A stretch of 64,000 nt of DNA from Candidatus Sulfotelmatobacter sp. (GCA_017883425.1 JADGNP010000001.1:2514-66513), one strand, 5' to 3'; shown: positions 4,686 through 53,646, numbered from the stretch's first letter. A program made the numbers and translations. The notes: generated from the letters alone by a model not told the origin.

Positions 4686-4697
4686 GTAAACGTTTGC
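4686..4697. promoter_or_regulatory. LacI-type operator candidate GTAAACGTTTGC (araA / GH43 divergent region), abutting a TACAAT -10-like hexamer at 4698..4703
   Basis: Near-palindrome centred on CG. An identical 14-mer AGTAAACGTTTGCT recurs at 9173..9186. It is a member of the recurrent intergenic motif described in the findings. Confidence 0.5.
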
Positions 4698-4760
4698 TAC
4701 AATTTGCTAAAATTATACCCCGTCACCTCTTCTACTGCACTAGGAAAGGCAGCCTCACAT

Positions 4761-5858
4761 ATGAATATCCGCTTCTTTCTGGGCTGCATGGTTCTGGCAG
4801 GCTTTTCGATCGTCGGTAGCCCTGCTCAGCAATCCTCCGGCACACCCCAGGCCCTTGAGTTACACGGGGACATTCAATACGTGCACGATCCTGCCATCAT
4901 TCGGAAGGGCATGACCTGGTACCTGTTCAGTACCGCCAATGGTCCCGAACATGGAGGTCAAATCCCGATCCGCTGCTCCCAAGACCTGCACGCGTGGCAA
5001 AGATGTGGGGATGTACTCGGTGAAATTCCGCAGTGGATCAAGAAAGAGAGCCCGCAAACCAAAGAACTCTGGGCACCAGACATCTCCTACTTCAACGGCG
5101 AGTATCACCTCTACTATGCCTTTTCAATATTCGGTAAGAATACTTCAGGCATCGCGCTGGTAACCAATAAGACACTAAACCCGAAGAGTCCGGACTTTCA
5201 CTGGGTGGATCGGGGATTGGTGGTTCGTTCCCGTGCGGAAGACAACTTCAATGCGATCGACCCAAATTTGATCATGGATGAGAACGGCCGAGTTTGGCTG
5301 GCCTTCGGCAGCTTCTGGGATGGTATCAAGATGAGGCGCATCGATACCCAGACCGGTTTATTGTCGTCCGAAGATACCAAGTTGTACTCTCTGGCCCGAC
5401 GCAGGCGCCCTAAGAATCCTCCGCCAGGCCCGCCCGGTCTGCCTGGCAATTGGCAAGCGATTGAGGCGCCCTTCATTGTTCACCACGATGATTACTACTA
5501 TCTATTTGTTTCATCTGATCTCTGCTGCCGCGGAATCAAGAGCACCTACAAGATCATGGTAGGGCGCTCGCATGCCGTTACCGGGCCGTACGTTGATGCG
5601 GATGGCTCGCCGATGATGGAGGGAGGTGAAACCGCTTTGTTGCAGGGCAACAGGCGCTGGATTGGGCCCGGCGGAGAATCCGTGCTAAAGGAGAAAGACG
5701 GAGACATCATCGTATTCCACGCCTACGACAACGTCAGCGGTCAACCGTACCTCCAGATTTCCACGATGGTATGGATCCACGGTTGGCCCAAGGTTGCGCT
5801 GGAGGGCGGCAAAACGGCCGCCGAGTCAGCAGAGAACGGTCGCTCCGTTCAACACTAG
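4761..5858 (+). CDS. GH43 endo-1,5-alpha-L-arabinanase, Sec-secreted
   Basis: Motifs HDPAIIRKGMTWYLFST and LWAPDISYFNGEYHLYYAFSIFGKNTSGIAL resemble AbnA-type GH43. I prefer the ATG at 4761 (MNIRFFLGCMVLAGFSIVGSPAQQ signal peptide) over the track start at 4704. Confidence 0.85.
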   Translation: MNIRFFLGCMVLAGFSIVGSPAQQSSGTPQALELHGDIQYVHDPAIIRKGMTWYLFSTANGPEHGGQIPIRCSQDLHAWQRCGDVLGEIPQWIKKESPQTKELWAPDISYFNGEYHLYYAFSIFGKNTSGIALVTNKTLNPKSPDFHWVDRGLVVRSRAEDNFNAIDPNLIMDENGRVWLAFGSFWDGIKMRRIDTQTGLLSSEDTKLYSLARRRRPKNPPPGPPGLPGNWQAIEAPFIVHHDDYYYLFVSSDLCCRGIKSTYKIMVGRSHAVTGPYVDADGSPMMEGGETALLQGNRRWIGPGGESVLKEKDGDIIVFHAYDNVSGQPYLQISTMVWIHGWPKVALEGGKTAAESAENGRSVQH

Positions 5859-7519
5859 GACAATGTCAAAGCCAGCTTTGTAACTGACGCTGGCGGAAAC
5901 GCATAGGTCAGCGTTCGTCCTTTGATGTCCAAGCCCTTCGTTTGCGGCGTAACAACATCCCGATGCGCAAACGTGTTGTGCGCATGGATGTCGGAGTTGG
6001 TAAGCGTTGTGGCCGATCCCGATTTCAGCAGGGCCCCCCGCAGGCTGATTTCTGCTTCGCTCGGCTGGCTTACATGAGGGTTAACGACTGTGAGTGTCAG
6101 ATTTTTTTCGCGTAGTGAAGCCGATCCCTTCAGTCCCCAAAAAGAAGCCGGCTTCCCGTCTCGATCATATTGAATCGTGGGCGCGGAAAAAATCGTGCGC
6201 AGTGCCTGGCCGCCCTGGTGGGAGGCATACAGTGCGAACACGTGCCCGACGGGCGTTACGACGAACCGGTCTTCATGCGCCAGATACAAGCTATTTAGAC
6301 AGTTAATCAACTGCGCGCACGCCGCCATGGCGACTTTCCCGGGATGGCGATTGAAGATGTCCAGCGTCATTCCGCTGAAGACCGCGTCGCGCAACGTTGG
6401 CATCTGCTCCAGTTGATCCCCGGGAGTTGCCTCACTGCCAGGTCGATACCATGGGCCCCACTCATCGACGATCAACTTTACGGAGTGTTGGGTATCCACC
6501 TCTCCCATGACCTGCCAATGGCCGTTAATCAGCTCTTCCATGCGGTCCCCTTCGCGCATCAACTCATACCAGTCGACCGCATCGAAGTTAAGCGCATCCC
6601 CCTTGCCTTGGTTCCAATCCTGCGTCTTTCCCCGGCTGAGGTTCCAGGCATAGTGATGAAGCGCCCAGCCATAAATGGATCGGAGTCCGCCTTTTCCTTT
6701 ACGCACGATCTCTTCGAAGAACTCTCGAGTCCAGGCCCAATTATCCACATTTGGCCCAGACCCGATAAACGACAACTCCTGTCCGAATCGCGGCACCCAC
6801 GTAGTGAATCGCCGGAATTCGACGGCGTATTCGGACGCAGTGAAATCCCCTCCGCATCCCCACGATTCGTTGCCAACGCCCCAATAGCGAACGTTGAAAG
6901 GATCTTTGAAACCAGCGTCTGCGCGCAAGTCGGCTAGGGTCGTGCTCCCAGCGGGAGAGTTGCAGTACTCGACCCAGCGAAAGAATTCCTCGGCGGGAAG
7001 GCTGCGCAGGTTCGCGGCCAGATAAGGCTCACCGCCAATCAACTTGCAGAAATGCGCAAACTCATTCGTGCCAAACTCGTTGGGATCGTAGCGGTGACTG
7101 GCGGGGGCCGCACTGCTTTCTCCCTCGGCCCAGAAGTTCGTGCGCCTTGGCCTCTTGTTTACTGGACCGACGCCATCGCGCCAGTCGTAACTGTCCGCAA
7201 AGCAGCCTCCGGGAAAACGCACCACCGGAGGCTTGATCTTGCGCATTTCGTCGATCAGTTCCTTGCGAATTCCGTCGACGTTCGGCACCTTGGAGTTCGG
7301 GCCCACCCAGACTCCGTCGTAAACCACTCCGCTTAAATTTTCCACGAAATGGCCGTAGATGTTAGGGGAAATGGTTCCCAGTGGCTCGTCCAGCAGAACC
7401 TCGATGCGGGCGCCAGTGGCATTCGACTGGGTCCAGCCCAGGGGAGATGCAGCTTTGGCGGCGAGAACAGCGCCCGCGCCAGCCAGACTTGTGCGAAGAA
7501 ACTGACGGCGATCGATCAT
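5855..7519 (-). CDS. GH51 alpha-L-arabinofuranosidase, Tat signal
   Basis: 554 aa. Twin-arginine leader MIDRRQFLRTSLAGAGAVLAAKA. GH51 motifs VVRFPGGCFADSYDWRDGVGP and YWGVGNESWGCGG are present. Confidence 0.88.
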   Translation of the reverse strand: MIDRRQFLRTSLAGAGAVLAAKAASPLGWTQSNATGARIEVLLDEPLGTISPNIYGHFVENLSGVVYDGVWVGPNSKVPNVDGIRKELIDEMRKIKPPVVRFPGGCFADSYDWRDGVGPVNKRPRRTNFWAEGESSAAPASHRYDPNEFGTNEFAHFCKLIGGEPYLAANLRSLPAEEFFRWVEYCNSPAGSTTLADLRADAGFKDPFNVRYWGVGNESWGCGGDFTASEYAVEFRRFTTWVPRFGQELSFIGSGPNVDNWAWTREFFEEIVRKGKGGLRSIYGWALHHYAWNLSRGKTQDWNQGKGDALNFDAVDWYELMREGDRMEELINGHWQVMGEVDTQHSVKLIVDEWGPWYRPGSEATPGDQLEQMPTLRDAVFSGMTLDIFNRHPGKVAMAACAQLINCLNSLYLAHEDRFVVTPVGHVFALYASHQGGQALRTIFSAPTIQYDRDGKPASFWGLKGSASLREKNLTLTVVNPHVSQPSEAEISLRGALLKSGSATTLTNSDIHAHNTFAHRDVVTPQTKGLDIKGRTLTYAFPPASVTKLALTLS

Positions 7520-7558
7520 GGCAATTCACCCTCAAGTACGAACGAAATCCTTCGGATA

Positions 7559-7570
7559 GTAAACGCTTGC
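7559..7570. promoter_or_regulatory. LacI-type operator candidate GTAAACGCTTGC, 40 nt upstream of the GH51 start
   Basis: Matches the recurrent motif in 11 of 12 positions relative to the site at 4686. Confidence 0.45.
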
Positions 7571-7692
7571 CATCCGGGATGCTACAGTTTTCATTTTCTT
7601 GATGGCATTCCGTTACCGGATATCCTTTTTGAGGTCGAAGCCTGAATCCTGCCTACTTGAGGCTCGGCTGGATCGGCGCGTAGATCGTCACG

Positions 7693-7704
7693 CTAAACGA
7701 TTGC
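7693..7704. promoter_or_regulatory. LacI-type operator candidate CTAAACGATTGC upstream of the LacI paralogue 1 gene (possible autoregulation)
   Basis: Lies 64 nt upstream of the ATG at 7768. A TATCAT -10-like hexamer follows at 7715..7720. Confidence 0.4.
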
Positions 7705-7767
7705 CCCTATTTGGTATCATCTTTTGTTTCCTGATCGCGGCCTGCAATGCCGCGCGCGGCCCATCTC

Positions 7768-8808
7768 ATGGATATTCGCGAAATCGCCAAGCGTGCACGA
7801 GTTTCGACTGCGACCGTGTCTCGCACCATCAACCGAATTCCAACGGTCAATCCTCAACTCGCCAAGCGAGTCTGGAACGTCGTTGAAGAACTTGGCTACT
7901 ATCCCAACACTCAGGCTCGCGCCCTCGTTTCCGGACGCAGCCGAATATTTGGCCTCATCATCTCGGAGATCACAAATCCATTCTTTCCCGAGATCGTACA
8001 AGTATTCGAGCGGATTGCGGTCCAGCATCACTACGAAATCATGCTGACCTCGACCGAAAATGATCCTACACAAATGGAGATAGCCGTACGGCGCATGATC
8101 GAACGCCGCGTCGAGGGAGTTGCCATTATGACCTTCGGCATGGAAGAGGTATTGCTGGAGGATCTGAAACTGCGCAAGGTACCCCTCGTATTCGTGGACG
8201 TCGGGCCGGCACGTCCCAGGGTCAGCAATATTCGCATCGACTATGTCCACGGGATTCGGCAGGCGGTCCAGCATCTGGCTGCGCTTCGCCACCATAGGAT
8301 TGGCTTCATATCCGGTCCCCTACATTTGAAATCGGCCGAGGCCCGTAAGCAGGCCTTCCTCAACTCGATGGCAGAGATCGGGTTGGACGTGGACAGGACT
8401 CTAGTCGTCGAAGGGACTCATACGATCGAAGGCGGCATCGCGGCGTTGGGCAAGCTACTGGCCGAACCGAACAGGCCTACTGCAGTCCTTTGCTCGAACG
8501 ACATGACGGCCATGGGGGTCATGAGAAAAGCTTATGAAGAAGGAATTCAGATTCCCGCGGATCTTTCGGTGATTGGCTTCGACGATATTCGTTTAGCACA
8601 ATTTATCTTGCCCGCCCTCACAACAGTGCAAATGTCGCAGGCTGAACTCGCTCGATTGGCTTTCAATGCACTTCTTACGGAATTGCAGCGGGCAGTACCC
8701 TCGCCTACGGGAACGGAATATGTATTGCAAACGCACCTTGTCCTTCGCGAGTCTACACGTCTGGTTCCGGGTCACGTAAAGGCCCCTGCGGGAAAGAAGC
8801 GATCGTAG
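7768..8808 (+). CDS. LacI-family transcriptional regulator (paralogue 1)
   Basis: HTH MDIREIAKRARVSTATVSRTINR followed by a periplasmic-binding-fold sugar domain (AVLCSNDMTAMGV, SVIGFDDI). Start taken at MDIREI (7768) by colinearity with the paralogue at 34366. Confidence 0.9.
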   Translation: MDIREIAKRARVSTATVSRTINRIPTVNPQLAKRVWNVVEELGYYPNTQARALVSGRSRIFGLIISEITNPFFPEIVQVFERIAVQHHYEIMLTSTENDPTQMEIAVRRMIERRVEGVAIMTFGMEEVLLEDLKLRKVPLVFVDVGPARPRVSNIRIDYVHGIRQAVQHLAALRHHRIGFISGPLHLKSAEARKQAFLNSMAEIGLDVDRTLVVEGTHTIEGGIAALGKLLAEPNRPTAVLCSNDMTAMGVMRKAYEEGIQIPADLSVIGFDDIRLAQFILPALTTVQMSQAELARLAFNALLTELQRAVPSPTGTEYVLQTHLVLRESTRLVPGHVKAPAGKKRS

Positions 8809-9122
8809 CTCTCTTCTTACCGGCGGCTCCCAGGACAAGCGGCATCAGGCTCCCCATTGAAGGACTTATCTTGGCGGCTTGAATCAAAGCGGGCAGCACT
8901 TGTCCGAACTCGCTTTTCCCGGGTTCGCCGAAAAGGAAATAGAACCTGCGATAGTGCTGATACAGATCTTCGTACACTGACTGGGCTGCATTCCCGGGTT
9001 CATAGACTGTGAAGGACGAGCAAATTCTATTCTGCGCCTCATCAATCGTCTTGAATGTGCCCGCGCCGAACCAGTTCGAGGTTGGCGTCCAGCACCTGTT
9101 CACGCAACGCAGGTAGAAGCAT
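8753..9122 (-). pseudogene. Deletion scar: first ~20 codons of L-ribulose-5-phosphate 4-epimerase (araD') fused out of frame to the 3' end of ribulokinase ('araB)
   Basis: The minus-strand ATG at 9122 gives MLLPALREQVLDANLELVRRG, then terminates after HIQDD (compare E. coli AraD MLEDLKRQVLEANLALPKH). From ~9070 a different frame reads FGAGTFKTIDEAQNRICSSFTVYEPGNAAQSVYEDLYQHYRRFYFLFG...VLPALI. That resembles the ribulokinase C-terminus (B. subtilis AraB ...[26 protein letters not shown]). About 700 codons of araD+araB are missing. Confidence 0.6.
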
Positions 9123-9173
9123 ATTTACCCCGAGGGTGGAATCCGCCGAGAACCGCTCAGGTTCGCTGATATA

Positions 9174-9185
9174 GTAAACGTTTGC
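9174..9185. promoter_or_regulatory. LacI-type operator candidate GTAAACGTTTGC between the araD' remnant and the aldo/keto reductase
   Basis: Identical to the site at 4686. Lies 52 nt upstream of the araD' ATG (minus) and 110 nt upstream of the AKR ATG (plus). A TACAAT hexamer sits at 9198..9203. Confidence 0.5.
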
Positions 9186-9294
9186 TCGCCGCGGTGTTAC
9201 AATTTTCACCGGAAGTTTGGGGATTTATCGGGCGTGCCGCGCCATCGATGGCACGCGCAACGGAGTTTCGGTCGATCGCAGCTAAAGAAAAACC

Positions 9295-10257
9295 ATGGAA
9301 ACTCGACTTCTCGGGAATAGCGACCTGGCCATCACCCCGATGGGAATTGGCGCGTGGGCTATCGGCGGTGGAGGCTGGAATGGCAGTATGGGACCGCAGA
9401 ATGACGGCGACTCGATCCCTGCGATCCACGCGGCCCTCGACCATGGGCTGAACTGGATTGACACCGCCGCACTTTACGGGCTCGGGCATTCCGAGGAAAT
9501 GGTCGCAAAGGCGATTCAAGGGCGGTCGCCCAAACCATACGTTTTTACGAAATGCGAACGCGTATGGGATAAGCACCGCAACATCGGAGCCTGCCTTAAA
9601 GCAGAGTCCGTGCGCCGGGAATGCGAAGACAGCCTTCGCAGATTGAAAATTGACGCAATCGACCTCTACCAGATCCACTGGCCCGAACCTGACAGGGATA
9701 TCGAGGAAGGCTGGACGGAGTTAGCTCGTCTGAAAGAGGAAGGTAAGGTTCGCTGGATTGCCGTGTCTAATTTCAGCGTGGAACAGATGAGACGGGCGCA
9801 AGCCATCGCTCCGATTACCTCGCTGCAACCGCCCTACGCAATCGTGCGGCGGGAGGTCGAGCAGGAAATTCTCCCGTTCTGCTTGAGCGAGAATATCGGC
9901 GTGATCGTGTATTCGCCCATGTACGCGGGCCTGCTCACCGGAGCGATGACCCGGGAGCGAGTCACGAATTTCCTGCCCGAAGACTGGCGCCGAAATCTGC
10001 CAGGTTTCCAGGAACCGGCGTTGTCTCGGAATCTACGAGTCGTGGAACACTTACGAGAAATTGGCAAACGTCACGGTCGTAGCCCGGGCGAGGTGGCCAT
10101 CGCGTGGACGCTGAACCATCCTGCCGTCACTGGCGCGATCGTGGGTTTTCGCAGCGCGCAACAGGTTGCGGGGATCATCGGCGTGGCGGACTTCCGCTTG
10201 AATCGGACCGAACTTTCTCAAATCGAGGACGTGCTGAAGCAGGCGAACGCAAATTGA
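9295..10257 (+). CDS. Aldo/keto reductase family oxidoreductase
   Basis: 320 aa. AKR motifs are present: GIGAWAIGG, NWIDTAALYGLGHSEEMVAKAI, IDLYQIHWP, SLQPPYA. Confidence 0.88.
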   Translation: METRLLGNSDLAITPMGIGAWAIGGGGWNGSMGPQNDGDSIPAIHAALDHGLNWIDTAALYGLGHSEEMVAKAIQGRSPKPYVFTKCERVWDKHRNIGACLKAESVRRECEDSLRRLKIDAIDLYQIHWPEPDRDIEEGWTELARLKEEGKVRWIAVSNFSVEQMRRAQAIAPITSLQPPYAIVRREVEQEILPFCLSENIGVIVYSPMYAGLLTGAMTRERVTNFLPEDWRRNLPGFQEPALSRNLRVVEHLREIGKRHGRSPGEVAIAWTLNHPAVTGAIVGFRSAQQVAGIIGVADFRLNRTELSQIEDVLKQANAN

Positions 10258-10300
10258 CGCAAGGAGTTCCTCTGCGCAAGCAGATAGTCGGAGCAACTCA

Positions 10301-10330
10301 TTGACAAAAAGGGTACAAGGCTCATAGCCT
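10301..10330 (+). promoter_or_regulatory. Sigma70-like promoter candidate (TTGACA, 18-nt spacer, TAGCCT) for the DUF1680 gene
   Basis: Perfect -35 hexamer at 10301..10306. The -10 keeps the T1, A2 and T6 positions. The predicted TSS falls immediately before the operator at 10339. Confidence 0.3.
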
Positions 10331-10338
10331 CTTTCGTA

Positions 10339-10350
10339 GTAAACGATTGC
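10339..10350. promoter_or_regulatory. LacI-type operator candidate GTAAACGATTGC, 22 nt upstream of the DUF1680 start
   Basis: Member of the recurrent motif. Sits between the promoter candidate and the RBS GGGAGG (10359..10364). Confidence 0.5.
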
Positions 10351-10372
10351 TCACATTCGGGAGGGTAGAAAT

Positions 10373-17303: not shown

Positions 17304-17352
17304 GGATTCCCTCCACAAATCGTCTTGCGCAAGAAGGTTTTGGAGTTCCCGA

Positions 17353-17364
17353 GAAAACGTTTAC
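17353..17364. promoter_or_regulatory. LacI-type operator candidate GAAAACGTTTAC (GTAAACGTTTTC on the gene strand) upstream of TBDR-1
   Basis: Lies 50 nt upstream of the TBDR-1 start. Member of the recurrent motif. Confidence 0.45.
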
Positions 17365-17505
17365 TCCAAGCAGATAATGTATAAATACTACCGCCAGAGA
17401 CTGTCAAGAACTTTTTTGGCCACGGATGTTCTGGGGAACGGCTCCAGGGGATCGTCGTTCCCTGATTCTGGCTTGCCTGCCTGCAAAAGCCAACCCCGAG
17501 AGACT

Positions 17506-19269: not shown

Positions 19270-19319
19270 ATTGGGGTCTATTGCTAAAGCCTCTATTATC
19301 GCGGGCGATGAACACCCGA

Positions 19320-19331
19320 GTAAAGGTTTAC
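19320..19331. promoter_or_regulatory. LacI-type operator-like palindrome GTAAAGGTTTAC between TPR-B stop and propeller 1 start
   Basis: Both half-sites (GTAAA / TTTAC) are perfect, but the centre is GG instead of CG. Lies 51 nt upstream of the start at 19269. Confidence 0.35.
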
Positions 19332-19335
19332 TGAC

Positions 19336-23562: not shown

Positions 23563-23570
23563 TGCACTTT

Positions 23571-24572: not shown

Positions 24573-24600
24573 AGAATTCTGATCCGCTCCTCGCGCTTAT

Positions 24601-27008: not shown

Positions 27009-27078
27009 GAGCCTGCTCCTCGATTAAGCTGCCCTTCACGGGGCGATCCCGGTGTTCCCGTCTACTGCGATTCGCTTC

Positions 27079-29157: not shown

Positions 29158-29214
29158 GAACTTTCCTCCCCAGTCTGGTCAGGTCCGTTGCTCGAAATTA
29201 TAGCGCCGAGCGCA

Positions 29215-29226
29215 GTAACCGTTTAC
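29215..29226. promoter_or_regulatory. LacI-type operator candidate GTAACCGTTTAC in the GH127 / arabinonate dehydratase divergent region
   Basis: Lies 58 nt upstream of the GH127 start. Matches the idealised palindrome GTAAACGTTTAC in 11 of 12 positions. Confidence 0.45.
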
Positions 29227-29349
29227 TCGTCGGCGCGAGCGAACGGCGCAGTCCGCACTCACATATCCACGCCCCGCCATGCCTTCGTTCAAATTACAGT
29301 TCGTGAGATGATCCTGCTTGCTTGTTCTGTCGTCAATCAATTTTTTTGA

Positions 29350-29361
29350 GATTACGTTTAC
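29350..29361. promoter_or_regulatory. Weaker operator candidate GATTACGTTTAC upstream of arabinonate dehydratase
   Basis: The right half-site CGTTTAC is perfect and the left half matches 3 of 5. Lies 78 nt upstream of the ATG at 29439, preceded by a T7 run. Confidence 0.3.
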
Positions 29362-29438
29362 TTACATGTTTTACAGTATGATCGAAACGCTTCCACACAC
29401 CGGAGACGGCGAAGGAACCAAACCTCTAGGATCATCCG

Positions 29439-33954: not shown

Positions 33955-34314
33955 TCACGCATGAGTCGCTCCCAGCGTTCGCTTTAAGCCTTCTTCATAG
34001 GATATCCGTTCCTTGTAGCCCCACTCTGCGCGAATGCGGGTAGTGTCGTATGCGATGTCCTGGCGGAAATCATAGGCATTGGCTGCGACCGGCGGGATGT
34101 TTGACGGCGGAAGGTTCTGAAGACGCTTCGCAATGGTTGGGGTGTACGCCTCGCCTACGTTGTAGACCTGGTTAGCGGCCGCAGAATGAAGAGCCGCCAA
34201 CACAATAGCTCTCCGGGAATTGTTTCGTCTAAGGTTGAATTGCCCTCGTGATGCCTGCCTGTCGCCACTTGTGCGGAATCGCTTCACAGACGTTTTCCAA
34301 TTCAGGACGGACAC
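33955..34314 (-). pseudogene. 3' remnant of an NAD-dependent epimerase/dehydratase-family gene
   Basis: Only the last ~70 residues look genuine: QVYNVGEAYTPTIAKRL...YDTTRIRAEWGYKERISYEEGLKRTL. There is no Rossmann N-terminal domain. It sits in a lower-GC, gene-poor stretch. Confidence 0.45.
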
Positions 34315-34365: not shown

Positions 34366-35472
34366 ATGGATATCCGAGAGATTGCCCGGAGGGCGAAAGT
34401 TTCCATTGCCACCGTGTCTAGAGCGATTAACCGTGTTCCCACGGTCGATCCTCAGCTCGCCAAGCGAGTATGGAAAGTGGTCGACGAGTTGGGTTATTAC
34501 CCCAATACCCAGGCTCGCGCGTTGGTGCTCGGGCGAAGCCGCATCTTCGGACTGATTGTGTCGGAAATCACGAATCCGTTTTTCCCGGAGATTGTTCAGA
34601 CCTTCGAGGATTTAGCGGTTGAGAACAACTACGAGATTCTGTTGACTTCCACCGTGCATGACCCCAAACGCATGGAGTCATCGGTCCGCAGGATGATTGA
34701 ACGCCGCGTGGATGGAGTCGCGATTCTAACCTTCGGCATGGAGGAGTCCCTGATTGAACACCTTCGCGACCGGAAGGTTCCGCTCGTATTCGTTGATGTT
34801 GGGCCCGATGTCCCGGGCATTGCAAATATCCGGATCAACTATCTGAACGGCATTCGACAGGCAGTCCAGCACTTGGCTGCGCTGCGTCATAGACGAATAG
34901 CATTTATTGCGGGTCCACAGTACTTGAAGTCCGCCGGTGCGCGGCGAGAGGCTTTCGAGGACTCCATGAAGGAAATCGGACTTTCTCCAGACTTAATCGT
35001 AATCGGGGACCACAGGATGGAGGGGGGAATGAATGCCCTTCTCGAACTCAATAAATTGAATGATCCGCCGACTGCGGTCCTCTGCTCCAACGACATGACT
35101 GCCATTGGAGTCCTGCGGGAAGCATACGAACAAAACATCAATATACCGGATGACCTCTCGGTTGTCGGCTTCGACGATATCCATTTGGCCGAGTTCACTA
35201 TTCCGCCATTGACGACGGTTCAGATGTCTCAGCACGATTTGGCCAAGATTGCGTTCAACGCCCTATTGCAAGAAGTCGAGTACGGATCTTCCTCGCGCGA
35301 ACGGCACAACTATGAACTCGTGACGAGTCTAGTCCTCCGCCGATCCACGGCCTTGGCTCCGATTAGAAAATCGGCGGCTACGCTGCCCAAGACAAACCGC
35401 ATTGCGAAATCACGCAGGACATCTATAGTTGATTTTGGGCCAGCCAATCATAACTCTCGCGTCACAGACTGA
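34366..35472 (+). CDS. LacI-family transcriptional regulator (paralogue 2)
   Basis: HTH MDIREIARRAKVSIATVSRAINR. About 70% identical by eye to the regulator at 7768..8808, with a near-identical recognition helix. Has an extra ~40-aa C-terminal tail. Confidence 0.9.
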   Translation: MDIREIARRAKVSIATVSRAINRVPTVDPQLAKRVWKVVDELGYYPNTQARALVLGRSRIFGLIVSEITNPFFPEIVQTFEDLAVENNYEILLTSTVHDPKRMESSVRRMIERRVDGVAILTFGMEESLIEHLRDRKVPLVFVDVGPDVPGIANIRINYLNGIRQAVQHLAALRHRRIAFIAGPQYLKSAGARREAFEDSMKEIGLSPDLIVIGDHRMEGGMNALLELNKLNDPPTAVLCSNDMTAIGVLREAYEQNINIPDDLSVVGFDDIHLAEFTIPPLTTVQMSQHDLAKIAFNALLQEVEYGSSSRERHNYELVTSLVLRRSTALAPIRKSAATLPKTNRIAKSRRTSIVDFGPANHNSRVTD

Positions 35473-42244: not shown

Positions 42245-42296
42245 GCGGCGCGGATCAGCCTCATCATCCCCCAGAAAAGCTGCTAGCCTCTAGTCA

Positions 42297-42308
42297 GAAA
42301 ACGATTTC
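42297..42308. promoter_or_regulatory. LacI-type operator candidate GAAAACGATTTC (extended palindrome CAGAAAACGATTTCTG, 42295..42310)
   Basis: 16-nt inverted repeat with one mismatched pair, in the 468-nt region upstream of TBDR-2. Confidence 0.4.
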
Positions 42309-42463
42309 TGCACGCTCGCAGATAGGGTGTAGGGCGTGGCTGGACGCTGCAGACGCCTACCAGGCGCGCGCCAAGCGAGCACAAATTCAGAACCCGATCC
42401 CCTGCAAGCAAGAATACTCGCAACAGAATGCTTTTTGCAGATGGAGGCTGGCCTGCAAACGGG

Positions 42464-42475: not shown

Positions 42476-42572
42476 GATTAGCCGATTCTTTTCATAAACT
42501 TACAGGAGCGTCGAGACTTTCAGCCGAAGCCTTGACCAATCGGTTACCTCTACTGCCCTTTGCGCAGGTCCG

Positions 42573-42595
42573 AGGCGCCACTGTGCCTTTTTCTG
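42573..42595 (+). terminator. Weak terminator-like hairpin + T-run in the TBDR-2 upstream region
   Basis: AGGCGC-CACT-GTGCCT (6 bp including one G-U pair) followed by TTTTCT. Lies ~330 nt after the propeller-3 stop and 20 nt before the promoter candidate. Confidence 0.25.
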
Positions 42596-42643: not shown

Positions 42644-42712
42644 ATGCATCCATCTGAGAAAAGGTTTTCTCGACATCGCGTGAGGTTTCGAACTTCAACC
42701 GGGAGGCGCGAG

Positions 42713-46420: not shown

Positions 46421-46439
46421 CCCTCTCCAGAAGGCTACA

Positions 46440-46534: not shown

Positions 46535-48433
46535 TTACTTTCCTAGCTTCTCTCGCCGTATGATGCCGTGGCCTTCCTGCAGCACCAGCAGTTGATTGGC
46601 ATCAACATTCTTGAAGGACTCGACCAGGCCTAGCGGCCAACGCACTTCGACCAAGTCCGCCAGTTTGGCCTGACCCAGGCCGAAATGCAGGCGCAAATCG
46701 TTCTGCGAGATGTAACTCGATCCGCTCATGACTTCGTTGATCTGGGAGTGCCGCCCAGTCAATACGCGCACGCGGGCACCGATCGCGCTTCGGTTCGACT
46801 TGGTTCCAACGCATTTCACCTTCAGCCAGTTGTTCTTTGTCGAACAGTCATTTCGCAGCAGCGATGGCGGCTCATTCATGTTGATGATTACCATGTCGAC
46901 GTCTCCATCGTTATCGAAGTCCCCGAACGCTGCTCCCCGGCTGGGGCGCGGCTCTGTCAGCACTGCGCCGCTATCGGCCGTCACGTCAACAAAGCGGCCG
47001 TTCCCAAGATTGCGGTAGACGATCTTTCGCTGCTTGAAGGTGAGGTGCAGTTTCTTGCTATCAACTTCAGGAAACACGTGACCGTTCGACATGAATATGT
47101 CAGGCCAGCCATCGTTGTCGAAATCACAGAGGCCCACGCCCCATCCCAGGTATCTGGTATTTCCGCCCAGACCGCCCTGCAAGACCGCGTCGTAGAAGGT
47201 TCCATCTCCGTTGTTGTGGTATAGATTGGCTGTTTGATCAGAGTAGTTCGTCTTAACGATATCCAGCCACCCGTCACAGTCATAATCGCCGACGGCCACT
47301 CCCATCCCGCCCTGCATTCCGCCGTTCTCGTTCACCGCGCAACCGATTTCCCGTCCAACCTCCTCGAAGGTTCCGTTCCCCTTGTTGTGATAGAAACGGC
47401 TGGGGACCGAGTCACAAGCTACGTAAATGTCCGGCCAGCCATCGTTGTCGAAATCTGCAGCGGAGACACCCAGACCATAGGAACCGGTCGGAATCCATTG
47501 GTCGCTCACAAAGAAAGGGTCTGAAGGACCGCGAGGTACCGCAATTCCCGACTGCAGAGACACATCCTCGAACGTTCCGTCGCCGCGATTGCGATAGAGG
47601 ATGTTCGTTCCGCCGCCCATTCCCTGCGGCCCGCAGCCGACCGAGAGTCCAAAATAACGGCAGTAGGCATTCTTCCCGGCGAGCGGCGTAGTCTTCAGGT
47701 CGAAATTGACGTAGTTCGCGACGAAGAGATCGAGGTGGCCGTCGCGATTGTAGTCTACAAAGCAGCAGCCGGTGTTCCATCGCGGATGCGCGTCCTTCTG
47801 CACAAGACCTGCTTTTTCGGTGACATCGGTGAAGGTCCCGTCCCCGTTGTTGTGATACAGGACAATGCCACCCCAATAGGTCACAACCAGATCGTCGCAA
47901 CCGTCGTTGTCGTAGTCTCCAATGCAACAACCTTGGCCCCAGCCGGACCTGGCCAGGCCTGCTTTCTGGGTAACGTCGGTAAACGTGCCATCGCGATTGT
48001 TGTGAAACAGGAAATTGGTCGGCGGACGCGATGCCGAGATTCCCTCAAGCCTGGTCCCGTTGACCATGAAAATGTCCAGCCAGCCGTCATTGTCGTAATC
48101 GAAAAGAGCAACGCCACAGCCCGTTTCCTCAAGGATGTACTCTTTGCGCTCAACTCCGCCAAAGACGTTAATTGCTGCCGCGAGACCGGATTCTTTGGCA
48201 ACGTCTTTGAATGAGAAGCTTGCGACTGCGGATGGGCTCGTTGTCGCCCTTCGGCTAGTGGGGGCTGTCGTATGCTTCTGCAGTGCCTGTAAAGCCGGCA
48301 GTCCAGTGAGCAGTGAGGAAACAGGCAATATGGAGCCTAGTCGGCCCATGGCACCAAGGAAATCACGGCGGGAAAAGTGAGTCGCTGCCGATAAGTTGCT
48401 GGGCCCGTGAAGGTCGAGAATACGCCGGCTCAT
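46535..48433 (-). CDS. FG-GAP 7-bladed propeller + ASPIC/UnbV protein (CRTAC1-like), Tat signal; paralogue 4, subtype I
   Basis: The ATG at 48433 gives MSRRILDL...FSRRDFLGAMGRLGS; the track start at 48517 overlaps the TPR gene. Seven loops from FDYDNDGWLD to GDFDNDGDVD. C-terminal NWLKVKCVGTKSNRSAIGARV. Confidence 0.85.
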   Translation of the reverse strand: MSRRILDLHGPSNLSAATHFSRRDFLGAMGRLGSILPVSSLLTGLPALQALQKHTTAPTSRRATTSPSAVASFSFKDVAKESGLAAAINVFGGVERKEYILEETGCGVALFDYDNDGWLDIFMVNGTRLEGISASRPPTNFLFHNNRDGTFTDVTQKAGLARSGWGQGCCIGDYDNDGCDDLVVTYWGGIVLYHNNGDGTFTDVTEKAGLVQKDAHPRWNTGCCFVDYNRDGHLDLFVANYVNFDLKTTPLAGKNAYCRYFGLSVGCGPQGMGGGTNILYRNRGDGTFEDVSLQSGIAVPRGPSDPFFVSDQWIPTGSYGLGVSAADFDNDGWPDIYVACDSVPSRFYHNKGNGTFEEVGREIGCAVNENGGMQGGMGVAVGDYDCDGWLDIVKTNYSDQTANLYHNNGDGTFYDAVLQGGLGGNTRYLGWGVGLCDFDNDGWPDIFMSNGHVFPEVDSKKLHLTFKQRKIVYRNLGNGRFVDVTADSGAVLTEPRPSRGAAFGDFDNDGDVDMVIINMNEPPSLLRNDCSTKNNWLKVKCVGTKSNRSAIGARVRVLTGRHSQINEVMSGSSYISQNDLRLHFGLGQAKLADLVEVRWPLGLVESFKNVDANQLLVLQEGHGIIRREKLGK

Positions 48434-48440
48434 TTTAGGT

Positions 48441-49985
48441 TCACTCAGGCAGCAACAGGCGCAAACGCACGTCCTTTTGCGCACGTTGCGCCGCTTCCAG
48501 CTTTCGTGACTCCGCAAACTCGCTCTCTGACTCGGCAGACTTGCCCAGGCGTCGAAGCAGAAGCCCTAGCTGGTAATGCGCTTCCACCGAATCCGGATCG
48601 AGAGAGACTGCGCGCTCGAGGTTCTGTTGGGCGTCCTCGTACTGGTGCACCCTCAGCAGTATGCCACCCAGTTTCACGTAGGACGGCGCATGCTTGGGAT
48701 TGCTCTTGAGTAACTCGCGGAAGACCGGGATCGCACGATCATCGTCGCCAATTGCGTCGTAAGTCAGCCCCAGATAGTAGGAAGCCGCTACCTGATTCGG
48801 TTGAGCCGCAAGGCTCTGCTTGAGCAAAGCTTCCGCTTCGCTGTACTTCCCTTGCAGGTAATATACGGCGCCGGTTGCATACATCAGGACGGCATCATGC
48901 GGGTGCTTCTGGAGCAGTCGCTGGAAAAGCGCTAGAGCGTCCGGCAACTGGCCCTTGGCAACTTTGGCGGAGCCTAAAACGTAGACGTACGAGTCATTGT
49001 CCGGCTCTCGTTCTACAGCCTTTGTCAGCGCAGGCAGCGCATCGTCGACAAGATTTCTCTCTAGACAGACTTTGCCAAATTCGAAGAGAACCTCCGGATC
49101 TTCAGGAGCTAGCTTTTTGGCGGCAACCAGATATGCCAGAGCTTTCTCACTGTTGTCTTGTCGATCGGCAACTTGCGCAAGAGTCTGGTAACACGCGACG
49201 CAGTCGGGAGCCAGCGACAACGCAAGTTGCGAATTCTTCTCCGCCTCGTCGAGAAGCCCTAGAGCCAGAAAAGCATTCCCCAATTTGAGGGCTAGAGGCG
49301 GTGACGGATGAGCACCGAGTCGCGCTGCTTCGTCCTGGGCCACTTTCGTGGCCTCAGTTTTCATCCCGTACACGAGCAGCGTGGTGCCGAAATCCAATGA
49401 CGCTTGATCCTCAGGTTGTGGCAACTTTTGCCAGTGCGCAAACAGGTCCGCTAACTCTTGCTTCTTTCCGAGCCCACCATAGTCGGAGGCAAGGACAACT
49501 ATCGCCTCATCAGATTCCAGTAGCTGAGGCATGATTGGCACAGCCAGATCGAGGGACTGCTGGAAATTGCGCCGGGAAGCCTCCAGTTTGAACAGGTCGA
49601 AGCGAGCATCGAAATTGCTTGGATCGATTTTCAGCACATCGTAAAAGCATTTCGCCGCCAAATCTGGCTTACCGCCGAACGCGTAGGCATTCCCCAACGT
49701 TGTGCGAGCGCCCACTAGCTTTGGATTCAGGGCGAGAGCTTGAACCAGAAACTTGGTACTCTCATCGGTTTTCCCCTGCTGCAACCGAATCGTTCCGAGC
49801 ATGGCCAGCGCTAAGGCGCGAGTCGATGGACTCTGCATGGCTTTACGGGCCTCGGCCTCGGCTTGCACCGTATCGCCGTTGCTCAATAGCTGAGCAGAGG
49901 TCGCAATGTGATTGGTCTGAGCACATGCGGCGACTGCAAGGAAACACAGGACGAGGAACACGCGCCAGCAGTCTCTTGCCCGCAT
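48441..49985 (-). CDS. Secreted TPR protein (TPR-3)
   Basis: The ATG at 49985 gives the signal MRARDCWRVFLVLCFLAVAACAQ; the track start at 50132 adds 49 non-signal residues. The stop lies 7 nt before the propeller-4 ATG. Confidence 0.8.
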   Translation of the reverse strand: MRARDCWRVFLVLCFLAVAACAQTNHIATSAQLLSNGDTVQAEAEARKAMQSPSTRALALAMLGTIRLQQGKTDESTKFLVQALALNPKLVGARTTLGNAYAFGGKPDLAAKCFYDVLKIDPSNFDARFDLFKLEASRRNFQQSLDLAVPIMPQLLESDEAIVVLASDYGGLGKKQELADLFAHWQKLPQPEDQASLDFGTTLLVYGMKTEATKVAQDEAARLGAHPSPPLALKLGNAFLALGLLDEAEKNSQLALSLAPDCVACYQTLAQVADRQDNSEKALAYLVAAKKLAPEDPEVLFEFGKVCLERNLVDDALPALTKAVEREPDNDSYVYVLGSAKVAKGQLPDALALFQRLLQKHPHDAVLMYATGAVYYLQGKYSEAEALLKQSLAAQPNQVAASYYLGLTYDAIGDDDRAIPVFRELLKSNPKHAPSYVKLGGILLRVHQYEDAQQNLERAVSLDPDSVEAHYQLGLLLRRLGKSAESESEFAESRKLEAAQRAQKDVRLRLLLPE

Positions 49986-50188
49986 AGAGTGGGTGCCCGG
50001 GTGGATACGAGGCCCGGTCAGAACTTCGTCTTTTATAGCATTGCCGCTGTACCCGCGCAATGCGTAAACCCGCGAAAATACTGGGGGGATTGCTCTTGTG
50101 ACCCCGCGCTCCACAGGTGTAGATTCATCCACAGGACAATCGGTTCTACTCTTGTCGGTTGCGGCTTTTCGGGGGCAGACGCAGCTTC

Positions 50189-51913
50189 ATGATCCAGGGA
50201 AAAAGTGGGTATTTTGGCACACGCCGTGGCTTCCTGAGACGCATCGGTGCAGTACTAGCCGCTTCTGCTCTTCCCGGTTTGCCCAGGCTTTGGCCAGTAG
50301 CCGTATCACCCCCTGAATTCCCCTTTGAACTCGTACCTCCAGAAGTGAACGGGATAACCTGGACCCACCGCAACGGCCGCTCGCCCGAGATGTACTTGCC
50401 TGAGACGGTTGGAGCGGGTTGCGGATTCATTGATTATGACAACGACGGCTGGATGGACCTCTATCTGGTCAACAGCGGGAAGTGCGATTTCCTGGATCCG
50501 AATCCGCCCCTTCGCAACGCACTCTACCACAACAACCGTGATGGCACCTTCACGGATGTAACCGAGAAAACGGGAGTTCCGGGAAGCGGCTATGGAATGG
50601 GTGTTGCGGTGGGCGACTACGACGGCGACGGCTTCCCCGACCTTCTCGTCACGCAATACAACGGTGTCATCCTCTACCACAACAATGGGAACGGCACGTT
50701 TACTGACGTGACCCGTAAAGCCGGGCTTCCCGCCACTGGATGGGCCTCGAGCGCAGTGTGGTTCGACTACGACAACGATGGCAAGCTTGACCTTTTTATC
50801 TGCCGGTTCGTGGACTTCGACAAGTCCAAGAACAAATTCTGCGGCAACCAGGAGACCGGAGACCGTTACTACTGCATCCCTCGCGTTTACGATCCCATGC
50901 CGAGTTGGCTGTTCCACAACAATGGCGACGGCACCTTCACCGACGTCAGCCAGGAGTCCGGGATTGCGAAGTCATTGGGCAAAGCCTGGGGCGTGGTCGC
51001 CTGCGACATTAACAATGATGGCCGGATGGACCTCTTCGTCGCGAACGATACGGTCGCGAACTTTCTATTTCTCAACCGGGGTAATGGCAAATTCGATGAG
51101 ATCGGACTTCAGGCAAATGTCGGCTACAGCGCCGAAGGCCATGCTCGCTCCGGCATGGGCGTGGACGCCGCGGATTATGACCAGGATGGGTGGGTAGACC
51201 TGTTCGTCACCAACGTGGACCGGGAGATGTATTCGCTGTATCACAACAATCACGATGAGAGTTTCGACGATATGGCCATTCCTAATGGGATCGGGCGAGT
51301 GACCCGGCTGATGAGCGGGTGGGGAGTTAAGTACTTCGACTACGACAACGACGGCAATCTCGACCTGTTCCTTGCCAATGGCCATCCGGACGACAAAATT
51401 GAAGAGCACTCGACGGAAGTGAAGTACTGCGAACCTATGCTTCTCTTTCGCGGCACTGGTAAACGATTCGAAGACATTTCTGGATCCAGCGGCCCAGTCT
51501 TTACAAAGCCCTATGCGTCGCGTGGCATGGCAGTTGGTGATTTCAATAACGATGGAGCCTTGGACATTCTCGTCGCGGTTAACAATGGCGCCCCTCTGTT
51601 GGTTAAGAACAATGCGGGGAGACACAATCATTGGCTGGGCGTGAAACTGGTAGCGAAGCAAGCGAACCCTGATGCTATCGGAGCCGTGATCACTTGGCAG
51701 GCTGGAGACTTGAAACGATCGATCTTCAAGACAGGCGGGGGGAGCTATCTTGCCTCGCACGATCCACGCCTCATTCTCGGCATCGGCGCTCGTCCGAAGA
51801 TCGACTGGGTGGAAATCAAATGGCCTATGCCTAGTGGACGGGTAGAACGATTCGCCGACCTCCCGATCGACAAATACATAACCTTATCGGAAGGCCGCGG
51901 AACAAAGGTTTAA
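50189..51913 (+). CDS. FG-GAP 7-bladed propeller + ASPIC/UnbV protein (CRTAC1-like), Tat signal; paralogue 5, subtype II
   Basis: The ATG at 50189 gives [30 protein letters not shown]. Seven loops from [10 protein letters not shown] to [10 protein letters not shown]. Shares the subtype-II insert [16 protein letters not shown] (compare RYCGERPPNGVRAYCHP in paralogue 2). Confidence 0.85.
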
Positions 51914-51965: not shown

Positions 51966-53576
51966 TTACGCTGCCCACTGAATCACGGTGTAAGAGTGTG
52001 CTGGAACCTCAAACCTTGTGCGCCCGTTTGCCGTTGAAGGTTTGTCGAGAGACTGCGGCTTCACTCGCTCGGGCGCATCGAAGCCGTTTACCGCCTTCAG
52101 ATCGGGTCCTGTCAATACCTGTGATGCCACCACGCGGCTCTGCGGCTGGTCTTCCCACACCACCTCGACAGCATGAGCTTTCGACAGGTCGCGGTTGAGA
52201 ATGAAGAGTGAAGTCTTCCCATCCTCGGTTGTCGCAACCGCATCCACGTACGGCACCGCATCCAGCCCCTTCACATCGTAAGTGGGCGACTCTACCAGCA
52301 GGTTGAGCACGCGCCCATGCGCATATTGCAGCGCCCAAGCGTACGGATAGTAAATGGTCTGGCGGTAGAGCCCGTTTTCGTTGGTCATGATCGGCGCAAT
52401 CACGTTGATCAGCTGTGCCAGACAGGCGACCTTCACACGATCTGCATTTCGCATCAGGGTGTTGAGCATGCCGCCAACCAGCAGAGCGTCCTCGAGGTCG
52501 TAGATTTCTTCGAGGAGATGTGGCGCCTCTTTCCGGTGCCCATCCACTGCGTCTCCGCTGCGTGCGCGATACCAGACATTCCATTCATCGAAGGACAGCC
52601 ACAGTTTCTTGGGCGATCTCGTGTGACCCCGCACCAGGTCGCAAACCGCCAGCGTCTCGGCAATCTGGCGATCCATCGTCAAGTTCATGGCCAGATACTT
52701 TGCGCTGTCCTCGCCCGTTTCCTGATTGTTCCCGAGATAACGATGCAACGAGAGCCCGTCCACGTTCTCGTAACACTGCTCCAGGACTTCGCGGTCCCAC
52801 TCCAGGTAGGTCGGCATAAACGGGCCGCTTGATCCACACGCAATCAACTGCACCGACCGGTCTACATAGCGCATCTGGCGGGCCGTATCCTGGGCCTTCA
52901 TGCCGTATTCTGTCGCGGTCATGTGCCCGATCTGCCACGGTCCGTCCATTTCATTTCCTAGGCACCAGTGCTTCACGTTGTACGGCTCGGCGTATCCGTG
53001 CTTCCGCCGCAAGTCGCTCCACTCCGTTCCTTTGTCCACATTGCAGTACTCCAGGAGGGCGGCTGCTTGCTCCGGAGTTCCGGTACCGAGATTAAGGCCC
53101 ATGAGGGGCAATGTTCCGACGGCCTTGCACCATTGCATGTATTCGTTGGTGCCAAACTGATTCGTGTTCAAGGCGTCCCACGCCTTGTCCAGCACGCGCG
53201 GACGGTCCTGCTTCGGGCCAACGCCGTCGAGCCAGTTGTAGCCAGAAACGAAGTTGCCGCCCGGATATCGAATGATAGGAACACCCAGACCACGCACTTC
53301 CTGCATTACGTCCTTGCGGAAACCGTTCGAGTCGGACAACTTCGATCCGGGATCGTAGATCCCCTCATAGATCGCGCGTCCCAATTGCTCGAGGAAGGAG
53401 CCGAACAAGTTTCGGTCCAGGGGGGAGATGCTACGGCGGCCGTCTAGCAAAATGCGGACGGTTTGATCTGCGGTTGACGATGTCTGCGCCGAGGCAAGGC
53501 GCCCGAAGAGAGTGCTGGAAGACAGAGCTAAAGCGGCCGTAGAAGCCTGTTGCAGAAACTGGCGTCTCGACGACAT
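51966..53576 (-). CDS. GH51 alpha-L-arabinofuranosidase (AbfA-type), Tat signal
   Basis: The ATG at 53576 follows GGAGGA by 8 nt. Leader MSSRRQFLQQASTAALALSS. Motifs IIRYPGGNFVSGYNWLDGVGP and HWCLGNEMDGPWQIGH are classic AbfA. Confidence 0.9.
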   Translation of the reverse strand: MSSRRQFLQQASTAALALSSSTLFGRLASAQTSSTADQTVRILLDGRRSISPLDRNLFGSFLEQLGRAIYEGIYDPGSKLSDSNGFRKDVMQEVRGLGVPIIRYPGGNFVSGYNWLDGVGPKQDRPRVLDKAWDALNTNQFGTNEYMQWCKAVGTLPLMGLNLGTGTPEQAAALLEYCNVDKGTEWSDLRRKHGYAEPYNVKHWCLGNEMDGPWQIGHMTATEYGMKAQDTARQMRYVDRSVQLIACGSSGPFMPTYLEWDREVLEQCYENVDGLSLHRYLGNNQETGEDSAKYLAMNLTMDRQIAETLAVCDLVRGHTRSPKKLWLSFDEWNVWYRARSGDAVDGHRKEAPHLLEEIYDLEDALLVGGMLNTLMRNADRVKVACLAQLINVIAPIMTNENGLYRQTIYYPYAWALQYAHGRVLNLLVESPTYDVKGLDAVPYVDAVATTEDGKTSLFILNRDLSKAHAVEVVWEDQPQSRVVASQVLTGPDLKAVNGFDAPERVKPQSLDKPSTANGRTRFEVPAHSYTVIQWAA

Positions 53577-53634
53577 TGTTTTCATCCTCCGGTTCGCCAG
53601 CCCACACAAAATTGACCAGCGCTAAGAATGCTTA

Positions 53635-53646
53635 GTAAACGATTAC
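53635..53646. promoter_or_regulatory. LacI-type operator candidate GTAAACGATTAC upstream of the second GH51
   Basis: Lies 59 nt upstream of the ATG at 53576. Palindrome with one mismatched pair. Confidence 0.45.

Follow-up and report, generated by a model that had tools for sequence, protein, structure and literature searches.

A 14-bp palindrome in an acidobacterial arabinose locus as the predicted operator of two paralogous LacI-family repressors

Does a short palindrome that recurs between the genes of an acidobacterial sugar locus mark a regulon and, if so, which regulator would read it? Acidobacteria (Terriglobia) are among the most abundant bacteria in soil and are hard to grow. The stretch of DNA analysed here (the window), 64,000 nt from Candidatus Sulfotelmatobacter sp. 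(GCA_017883425.1 JADGNP010000001.1:2514-66513), carries genes for arabinose and arabinan use together with outer-membrane barrel genes (TBDR1 and TBDR2), FG-GAP propeller genes (FGGAP1 to FGGAP5) and TPR genes (TPR1 to TPR4), and it encodes two LacI-family regulators, LacI1 and LacI2. An earlier note, made from the sequence alone, had listed 12 copies of a 12-nt palindrome, GTAAACGnTTrC, and had read them as the operators of a single arabinose-responsive LacI regulon. Taken as a whole, the comparative sequence evidence is best explained if the motif is the operator of LacI1 and LacI2, two paralogous and autoregulated repressors, a reading that we hold to be highly probable.

All 12 of the listed 12-mers occur exactly as they had been written, but the full element is longer: both in the window matrix and in the matches from relatives the motif widens by one base per side, giving the 14-bp palindrome aGTAAACGTTTACt. 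Intergenic DNA, as delimited by maximal open reading frames (ORFs), amounts to 5,433 nt, or 8.5% of the window, the remaining 58.5 kb being coding. The word AAACGNTT is found at 11 intergenic and six coding positions, and in an unbiased word count AGTAAACG was the commonest intergenic 8-mer (eight intergenic occurrences, two coding) and AGTAAAC the commonest intergenic 7-mer. A consensus derived from other genomes, GHAAWCGWTTDC, was then searched in the window, where it has six exact matches against 0.22 expected, all six intergenic; none of 100 shuffles reached that number. Allowing one mismatch raises the count to 16, where 4.7 are expected; 11 of these are proposed operators and the other five are at background level. 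The excess over chance claimed beforehand is borne out by word counts, shuffles and the relatives-derived consensus alike. Enumeration of perfect dyads (4 + gap + 4) in the intergenic DNA did not discriminate (top count 3, shuffle mean 2.4, maximum 4), and the motif had to be traced by word counts and position weight matrices. The one intragenic half-match that had been noticed, at 51459, is indeed the sole coding match to [GC]TAAACGNTT in the window. After correction of the starts of GH43 (4761), LacI1 (7768), LacI2 (34366) and TBDR2 (42713), the distance from a site to the nearest start codon is 28–115 nt; the sites do lie upstream of starts, as had been proposed, over this range and not the 20–110 nt given before.

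To relatives the same motif was carried as a 16-nt matrix built solely from nine of the listed window sites. A search with LacI1 against species-representative genomes gave 79 loci with about 10 kb of flank (1.5 Mb) from metagenome-assembled genomes of Terriglobia/Acidobacteriaceae, at 76–95% protein identity, which places the window in a member of the Terriglobales, and a metagenome scan with LacI2 gave 80 further loci at 82–94% identity, so that 159 loci of related Terriglobia, 2.45 Mb in all, were scanned. At a cut-off of at least 14 bits the LacI1 loci contain 231 matches, 158 of them in the 9.2% of the DNA that is intergenic; 47 of the 73 “coding” matches are within 90 nt of the start of a maximal ORF. 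These matches represent 122 distinct 16-mers, with the consensus aG[T/C/a]AA[A/t]CG[T/a]TT[A/G/t]Ct. The LacI2 loci have 133 intergenic and 49 coding matches, a 25-fold difference in density, and across both sets the density is 21–25 times higher in intergenic than in coding DNA, an enrichment of the kind that the earlier note had proposed to test genome-wide, here within 10-kb flanks. A first-order Markov null predicts about one intergenic match per set, against 142 and 130 observed. The motif co-occurs with LacI genes in 154 of the 159 loci, and its central C8/G9 are kept in 455 of 462 half-sites in the LacI1 loci and in 355 of 364 in the LacI2 loci. Phylogenetic footprinting of the DNA upstream of LacI1, LacI2 and the TBDR genes shows the operator as a conserved island within otherwise diverged upstream regions.

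The two regulators have the domains expected of proteins that would bind such a site. LacI1 (7768..8808, plus strand; Pfam LacI and Peripla_BP_3) and LacI2 (34366..35472, plus strand), which is 69% identical to it and heads LacI2-TPR3-FGGAP2-FGGAP3, both combine a LacI helix-turn-helix (HTH) domain (PF00356) with a periplasmic-binding-protein-like sensor (PF13377/PF00532). The nearest solved structures are CcpA and PurR, the CcpA alignment spanning residues 3–306. In LacI1 the HTH reads VSTATVSRTIN and the hinge NTQARAL; where the recognition helix here is VSTATVSR, CcpA has VSMATVSR, a difference of one residue, and CcpA shares the hinge leucine (NAVARGL). Against NCBIfam the regulators gave only sub-threshold matches to the PurR, RbsR, CytR and CcpA models. 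Alignment of paralogues and orthologues agrees with the earlier observation that the recognition helices are nearly identical: the DNA-binding domain is almost invariant across 80 LacI1-clade and 76 LacI2-clade orthologues, the recognition helices of the two clades are the same except for T/A after SR, and consistent clade differences fall only outside the base-contacting positions (e.g., S55 versus L55). The window LacI2 has Ile at helix position 14 (VSIATVSR; codon at about 34405–34407), alone among 157 sequences, all 156 orthologues of the two clades having Thr there. Paralogue-specific recognition helices (T versus I) were considered and rejected, all 76 LacI2 orthologues having Thr and the Ile being unique to the window.

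Operators of LacI-family regulators are even palindromes of 14–22 bp with a central CG, most of them lie 30–140 bp before a start, and 72% of the regulators are autoregulated (Ravcheev et al., PMC4052901). The present motif follows this pattern, with an even 14-bp palindrome, a CG centre, a 28–115 nt spacing and a copy in front of about 80% of the 139 testable LacI1 and LacI2 orthologues, and the LacI/GalR-type shape first attributed to it thus has the sequence-level hallmarks of the family.

Which genes carry the operator was counted among homologues that are not operon-internal, scoring sites of at least 13 bits between −250 and +90. Sites precede LacI1 in 55 of 69 homologues and LacI2 in 57 of 70, and among the enzyme and transport genes they precede araA (16/20), GH43 (4/4), GH31 (16/19), GH127a (15/21) and GH127b (8/10; 23/31 for GH127 pooled), the aldo-keto reductase gene AKR (15/24), GH51 (48/82, with 34/55 for the GH51b type), the MFS gene (10/16) and IlvD (3/5). 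The operators proposed at araA, GH43, GH51, DUF1680/GH127, AKR and the IlvD-type dehydratase are in this way matched by conserved sites before the homologues in relatives. Both barrel/propeller loci had also been placed under control, and here the picture divides: sites are found at TBDR2-like (17/20) and TBDR1-like genes (11/17; 28/37 pooled), and the barrel genes and FGGAP1 carry operators in the window, but homologues of TPR1 (0/18), TPR3 (3/20) and FGGAP2/3 (0/10) almost never do. The TPR genes could be co-transcribed with the barrel genes, because they follow them closely on the same strand: in 17 cases a TPR gene comes after the barrel gene, with a gap of 56–291 nt in 16 and a 74-nt overlap of maximal ORFs in one, and no terminator-like hairpin was found in the TBDR1–TPR1 gap of the window.

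The commonest extra targets in the LacI1 loci are AraD (L-ribulose-5-phosphate 4-epimerase; 40 loci) and AraB (ribulokinase; 10 loci), their identity being confirmed by NCBIfam (NF006047, NF003154); araB and araD are absent from the window, though they are core targets in relatives. Further targets on the LacI2 side are a class-II aldolase/epimerase, an FGGY kinase, a sugar isomerase, a galactokinase and a sodium:solute symporter. Nearly all of the targets identified in relatives are arabinose-related, and the prominence of araD and araB among them favours an arabinose-responsive reading. The order DUF5695-araA-(GH43)-GH51a-LacI1-(GH51b)-AKR-GH127a-TPR1-TBDR1-FGGAP1 is kept in about 20 relatives.

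Scored with a matrix from which each site was left out in turn, nine of the 12 listed sites are strong, spanning 12–23 bits (4686, 7559, 9174, 10339, 17353, 19320, 29215, 42297 and 53635), while 7693 and 29350 are marginal and 42464 fails. The exact consensus match aGTAAACGTTTGCt occurs twice at 24.5 bits: at 4685..4698, where it is common to the divergent araA (−) and GH43 (+) promoters, and at 9173..9186 before AKR (+), its centre 115 nt from the ATG and a TACAAT hexamer 13 nt downstream. Exact matches also lie before GH127a/DUF1680 (+; 10338..10351, aGTAAACGATTGCt, centre 28 nt from the ATG), before GH51b (−; 53634..53647, aGTAAACGATTACt) and before TBDR1 (−; 17352..17365, aGAAAACGTTTACt). 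This last site has the top matrix score and is preceded on the strand of the gene by a TTGACA 41 nt before it begins, and TBDR1 orthologues have GAGTAAACGTTTTCTC 55–69 nt upstream in five related loci (L015, L017, L022, L023, L025). The operator before FGGAP1 (−; 19319..19332, aGTAAAGGTTTACt, 17.4 bits) lies between TPR2 and FGGAP1, which are separated by 66 nt, and has a non-canonical central GG; its comparative support is thin, a site being present in one of two testable orthologues. At 29214..29227 (aGTAACCGTTTACt, 17.1 bits) an operator lies between the GH127b-MFS-MR/MLE-FAH-HIBDH operon (−) and IlvD–GH31 (+), 63 nt from the GH127b ATG at its centre and with TATAAT 12 nt downstream on the GH127b strand.

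In front of the regulators the window copies are degenerate. Upstream of GH51a (−) and distal to LacI1 there is a good operator at 7558..7571 (aGTAAACGCTTGCc, 17 bits, 12.3 when left out), its centre 45 nt from the GH51a ATG. The LacI1-proximal copy at 7692..7705 (gCTAAACGATTGCc) scores 7.9 bits when left out; when 80 LacI1 upstream regions are aligned, its place is the most conserved island, relatives carrying GCGTAAACGATTGCCC there, about 60 nt before the LacI1 start, and the window copy has a G-to-C change at an otherwise invariant position. Before LacI2, a copy at 34285..34298 (cACAGACGTTTTCc) that was absent from the earlier list has lost its left half and scores 2.9 bits in the window. 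It reads TCACAGACGTTTTCCA, centred 74 nt before the start, and close relatives carry TAGCAAACGTTTTCTA at −66 to −71. By comparison with these relatives, the sites at 7693 and 34286 are read as decayed copies of conserved autoregulatory operators. The decayed operator and the unique Ile of the window LacI2 may mean either that this copy is drifting toward loss or altered specificity, or that there is a sequencing or assembly error.

The marginal candidate before the IlvD-type dehydratase (29349..29362, aGATTACGTTTACt; 8.5 bits when left out, rank 15) fits the motif in its right half alone and has no specific support in the compared relatives; it is a possible operator. The pairs 7559/7693 and 29215/29350 are spaced by 134 and 135 bp, a coincidence that is probably not meaningful, because the paired sites before LacI1 in relatives are 42 to 139 bp apart.

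TBDR2 (+) has two operators. The distal one (42296..42309, aGAAAACGATTTCt) is an exact consensus match 53 nt past the FGGAP3 stop, and the proximal one (42657..42670, aGAAAAGGTTTTCt), which scores 19.2 bits though outside the training set of the matrix, is a strong and conserved promoter-proximal site, GAAAAGGTTTTC at 42658, that had been missed in the first reading. Relatives hold an identical GAGAAAAGGTTTTCTC at the proximal place, keeping the unusual GG centre. The two-operator layout recurs in nine relatives, with a distal CAG[C/A]AAACGATTTCT 328–352 bp upstream of the proximal site, the spacing in the window between 42297 and 42658 being 361 bp; 19 of 39 TBDR-like genes have two sites. 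The real start of TBDR2 is probably 42713, which gives a signal peptide beginning MKRRPF. The listed site at 42464 was rejected (1.2 bits and rank 167 when left out, no counterpart in relatives). A terminator-like hairpin, 42572–42589, lies between the two operators. The spacing of the pair (328–361 bp) recalls the looping of lac O1–O2, but no obvious tail for tetramerisation is present in either LacI protein.

The placement of the operators relative to promoters was read mostly by eye from oriented upstream regions. One group of operators lies just downstream of the −10: at TBDR1 a TTGACA is followed after about 17 nt by an A/T-rich hexamer and, about 14 nt further on, by the operator, at TBDR2 the order is TTGACA-17-TAAAAA, 14 nt and the operator, at GH127a TTGACA-18-TAGCCT and 8 nt, and on the araA strand TATAAT and 14 nt, the GH43 strand having a TACAAT that adjoins the operator. 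The other group lies over the −35 region, 0–20 nt upstream of a −10-like hexamer (AKR, GH43, LacI1, GH127b and FGGAP1). A sigma-70 scan gave a GH51b promoter, TTGCCC-17-TATATT, whose end at 53660 is 13 nt upstream of the operator, and an FGGAP1 promoter, TTTACT-18-GATAAT, with the −35 hexamer inside the operator. In relatives, over 458 oriented site–gene pairs, TTGACA-like hexamers peak 41–50 nt and −10-like hexamers 15–30 nt upstream of the operator centre, and the commonest class of operator would therefore lie near +10, a repressor position.

From these elements a simple mechanism can be proposed. The 14-bp palindrome aG[T/C/A]AA[A/T]CG[T/A]TT[A/G/T]Ct would be occupied by a dimer of either repressor: in each half-site the recognition helix (VSTATVSR) would enter the major groove, and the leucine of the hinge helix (ARAL) would sit at the central CpG. 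Since the operators overlap the −35 region or lie at about +10 from the transcription start, binding would block transcription, and a sugar effector would release the repressor. The effector is most likely L-arabinose or an arabino-oligosaccharide, because araA, araB and araD are core targets. In the window the regulon would comprise araA, GH43, GH51a, GH51b, AKR, GH127a, the GH127b operon, the IlvD-type dehydratase and GH31, together with the two TBDR-like outer-membrane barrels, FGGAP1 and both regulators. LacI1, a probable AraR-like repressor, is in the best-supported reading the arabinose regulator proper (araBAD, GH51, GH43, GH127 and AKR), and the enzyme genes are probably under its control by way of G[T/C]AAAC half-sites. 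LacI2, which adjoins the GH127b/oxidative-branch genes and heads the TPR3-FGGAP2-FGGAP3 operon beside TBDR2, probably controls TBDR2 as well as its own operon, using GAAAAC half-sites arranged in the conserved pair of operators with a spacing of about 350 bp. With DNA-binding domains so nearly identical, the two proteins are likely to bind each other's sites as well.

The division between the paralogues is drawn from position 4 of the half-site, which is A-rich at the LacI2 autoregulatory and TBDR2 sites and T/C-rich at the LacI1 and enzyme-gene sites. At autoregulatory sites 69 of 124 halves are of the A type on the LacI2 side against 22 of 158 on the LacI1 side, and at TBDR2-like genes 22 of 30 in LacI2 loci against one of 32 in LacI1 loci; enzyme genes use T/C halves in both locus sets, and the only A/A operators of the window are the two at TBDR2. 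With two paralogous regulators that differ in this way, the earlier picture of a single regulon is not established. It could still be that one effective regulator is at work, with both paralogues, or LacI1 alone, binding all sites, and with A versus T/C recording no more than shared ancestry of the sites. The identity of the recognition-helix positions in the two clades, T/A after SR apart, speaks in its favour, as do the GTAAAC/GCAAAC sites of TBDR-like genes beside LacI1 orthologues and the impaired look of the window LacI2, with its unique T-to-I change and decayed operator. We nevertheless consider it somewhat unlikely, given the size of the half-site differences just cited and the retention and autoregulation of both paralogues in many lineages. 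The fullest form of the two-dialect idea is that recently duplicated LacI repressors have split an ancestral operator into G[T/C]AAAC and GAAAAC dialects, LacI2 looping the operator pair about 350 bp apart, with its GG-centred proximal site, to shut off a barrel/FG-GAP/TPR module that would be an Acidobacteria-specific importer of arabinan or arabino-oligosaccharides. It is unlikely to be right in every part, and it is a lead and not a result, because the half-site counts are phylogenetically non-independent. If true, the module (CarboxypepD_reg/OMP_b-brl_4 barrel, CRTAC1-like propellers and TPR proteins) would do the work of SusC/D or CUT systems with different components.

Two more distant explanations concern the identity of the binding factor itself. 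The core G[T/A]AA[A/G]CG..TT[A/T]C resembles the Bacillus cre consensus, and with CcpA among the nearest solved structures and a recognition helix one residue away from that of CcpA, the palindrome might be a cre-like element bound by a global catabolite regulator. This is very unlikely: the regulator genes lie amid arabinose and arabinan genes and are autoregulated in 159 loci, as is typical of local LacI-family regulators (PMC4052901), the targets identified within the 2.45 Mb around the regulators and the 64-kb window are arabinose/arabinan-related, and the matrix scan of the window places no site at gdh, GH39, the GH10-like gene, the glycoamylase genes or the ABC genes. Palindromes can also form RNA or DNA hairpins, and a structural or repeat element (REP-like, or an RNA hairpin), or the site of an unrelated factor, might lie near LacI genes by coincidence. 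That is scarcely credible for a loopless, A/T-rich 14-bp palindrome, a poor hairpin, which accompanies LacI genes in all but five of the 159 loci, follows the rules of LacI-family operators and is placed by promoters and not by gene ends; a riboswitch or small-RNA explanation is likewise without support, because no RNA family of Rfam matches anywhere in the window. Several observations do weigh against the preferred assignment to LacI1 and LacI2. The operators at 19320 and 42658 have GG in place of the nearly invariant central CG, and the paralogues, for all the difference in their half-sites, do not differ correspondingly in the residues that contact bases. The sites counted in different relatives are not independent of one another phylogenetically, and the relatives were scanned up to 10 kb from the regulator genes, which leaves room for a wider, global regulon. 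A sigma-70 consensus scan found no promoter in 4400–10400 and elsewhere scored barely above the shuffle background, for which reason most of the promoter assignments are inferred.

How does the predicted regulon compare with known systems? In bifidobacteria, comparative genomics assigned arabinose genes to the LacI-family regulators AraQ (araBDA), AbfR (GH51), AauR (GH43/arabinanase) and BauR (GH127, HypBA1) (PMC5928203). Common to both are local LacI repressors with palindromic operators, mostly autoregulated, the same target families (araBAD, GH51, GH43 and GH127) and overlapping regulons of paralogues. The acidobacterial case differs in phylum, in having one motif family as against at least four regulators, in transport, which would run through TBDR-like barrels and an MFS protein instead of ABC systems, and in including an oxidative branch of IlvD/AraD1 type. 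In the sux locus the LacI/GalR-type SuxR controls the TBDR SuxA, the MFS transporter SuxC and the enzyme SuxB, and related CUT loci occur in Xanthomonas and Caulobacter (PMC1790865). The present loci would resemble these in placing an outer-membrane transporter-type barrel, an MFS protein and plant-carbohydrate glycoside hydrolases under an autoregulated LacI-type repressor, and they differ in the barrels, in the FG-GAP/ASPIC (CRTAC1-like) and TPR proteins that accompany them and in the predicted substrate, arabinan or arabinose as against sucrose for sux. With PurR and CcpA (1RZR, 1ZVV and the PurR entries) the regulators share the fold, an almost identical recognition helix, the hinge leucine and a CG-centred core of AAACGTTT type, but the regulon is sugar-specific and local, in contrast to purine or global catabolite control.

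The survey of LacI regulons (PMC4052901) does not mention Acidobacteria, and no acidobacterial LacI or arabinose regulon, nor any transcription-factor regulon reconstruction for these bacteria, was found in the searchable literature; it seems that no conserved operator motif had been described for the group before this one. It is a conventional sugar regulon of standard LacI-family pattern, its mechanism is not surprising, and the understanding of LacI-family regulation is unchanged by it. What the motif offers is a conserved and testable link between arabinan/arabinose catabolism and the numerous uncharacterised outer-membrane barrels of Acidobacteria, for which it predicts arabinose-containing plant glycans as substrate. 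The 14-bp operator and the two repressors would also be a handle for inducible expression or reporter design in these bacteria.

The gene map of the window, drawn from Pfam and NCBIfam matches, begins with gdh, a fragmented DUF5695 gene, araA (2943-4445, −), GH43 (+, start probably at 4761), GH51a (−), LacI1 (+), AKR and GH127a. TPR1, TBDR1, FGGAP1 and TPR2, all on the minus strand, follow, then GH39, the GH127b-MFS-MR/MLE-FAH(AraD1/GguC type)-HIBDH operon (−) and the IlvD-type dehydratase and GH31 (+). LacI2, TPR3, FGGAP2, FGGAP3 and then TBDR2 (+) are succeeded by FGGAP4 and TPR4 (−), FGGAP5 (+) and GH51b (−), with GH10-like, glycoamylase and ABC genes at the end. GH43 is an endo-arabinanase-like enzyme, and FGGAP1 resembles CRTAC1 (9ETN). 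The barrels match OMP_b-brl_4 and CarboxypepD_reg and, weakly, TonB_dep_Rec_b-barrel in Pfam; with no Plug domain at E ≤ 1e-3 in Pfam, no match among NCBIfam models and nothing related in the PDB, they would be “TBDR” only loosely.

Some features of the map stand apart from the operator question. The region 22690-31154 is an operator-controlled divergon that joins GH127b, a galactonate-type MFS protein, an MR/MLE dehydratase, an AraD1/GguC-type FAH protein and an HIBDH-like dehydrogenase with the IlvD-type dehydratase, which comes near the L-arabinonate dehydratase model (859.7 bits, cut-off 882); this suggests a non-phosphorylative sugar-acid branch beside the AraA pathway. The DUF5695 gene, which encodes an uncharacterised protein and lies downstream of araA (1598-2830, −), consists of two ORFs matching profile positions 2–141 and 673–698 of 857. 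In most relatives it is intact, at about 930 amino acids, and seven of 17 homologues have an operator; given the fragmentation here and the operators at the relatives' copies, it would be part of the arabinose regulon elsewhere and a pseudogene in the window. In the 911-nt gap before LacI2 there is a 119-residue ORF (33955-34314, −) that resembles, on inspection by eye, what is left of the C-terminal part of an NAD-dependent epimerase/dehydratase-type gene, and the gap would therefore be a decayed gene and not regulatory DNA. The third propeller/TPR group, FGGAP4, TPR4 and FGGAP5 (46535-51913), has no barrel gene, and no operator was found at any of its genes in the window. TPR4 and FGGAP5 are divergent and their maximal ORFs are only 26 nt apart, so that at least one start or promoter must lie inside the neighbouring ORF.

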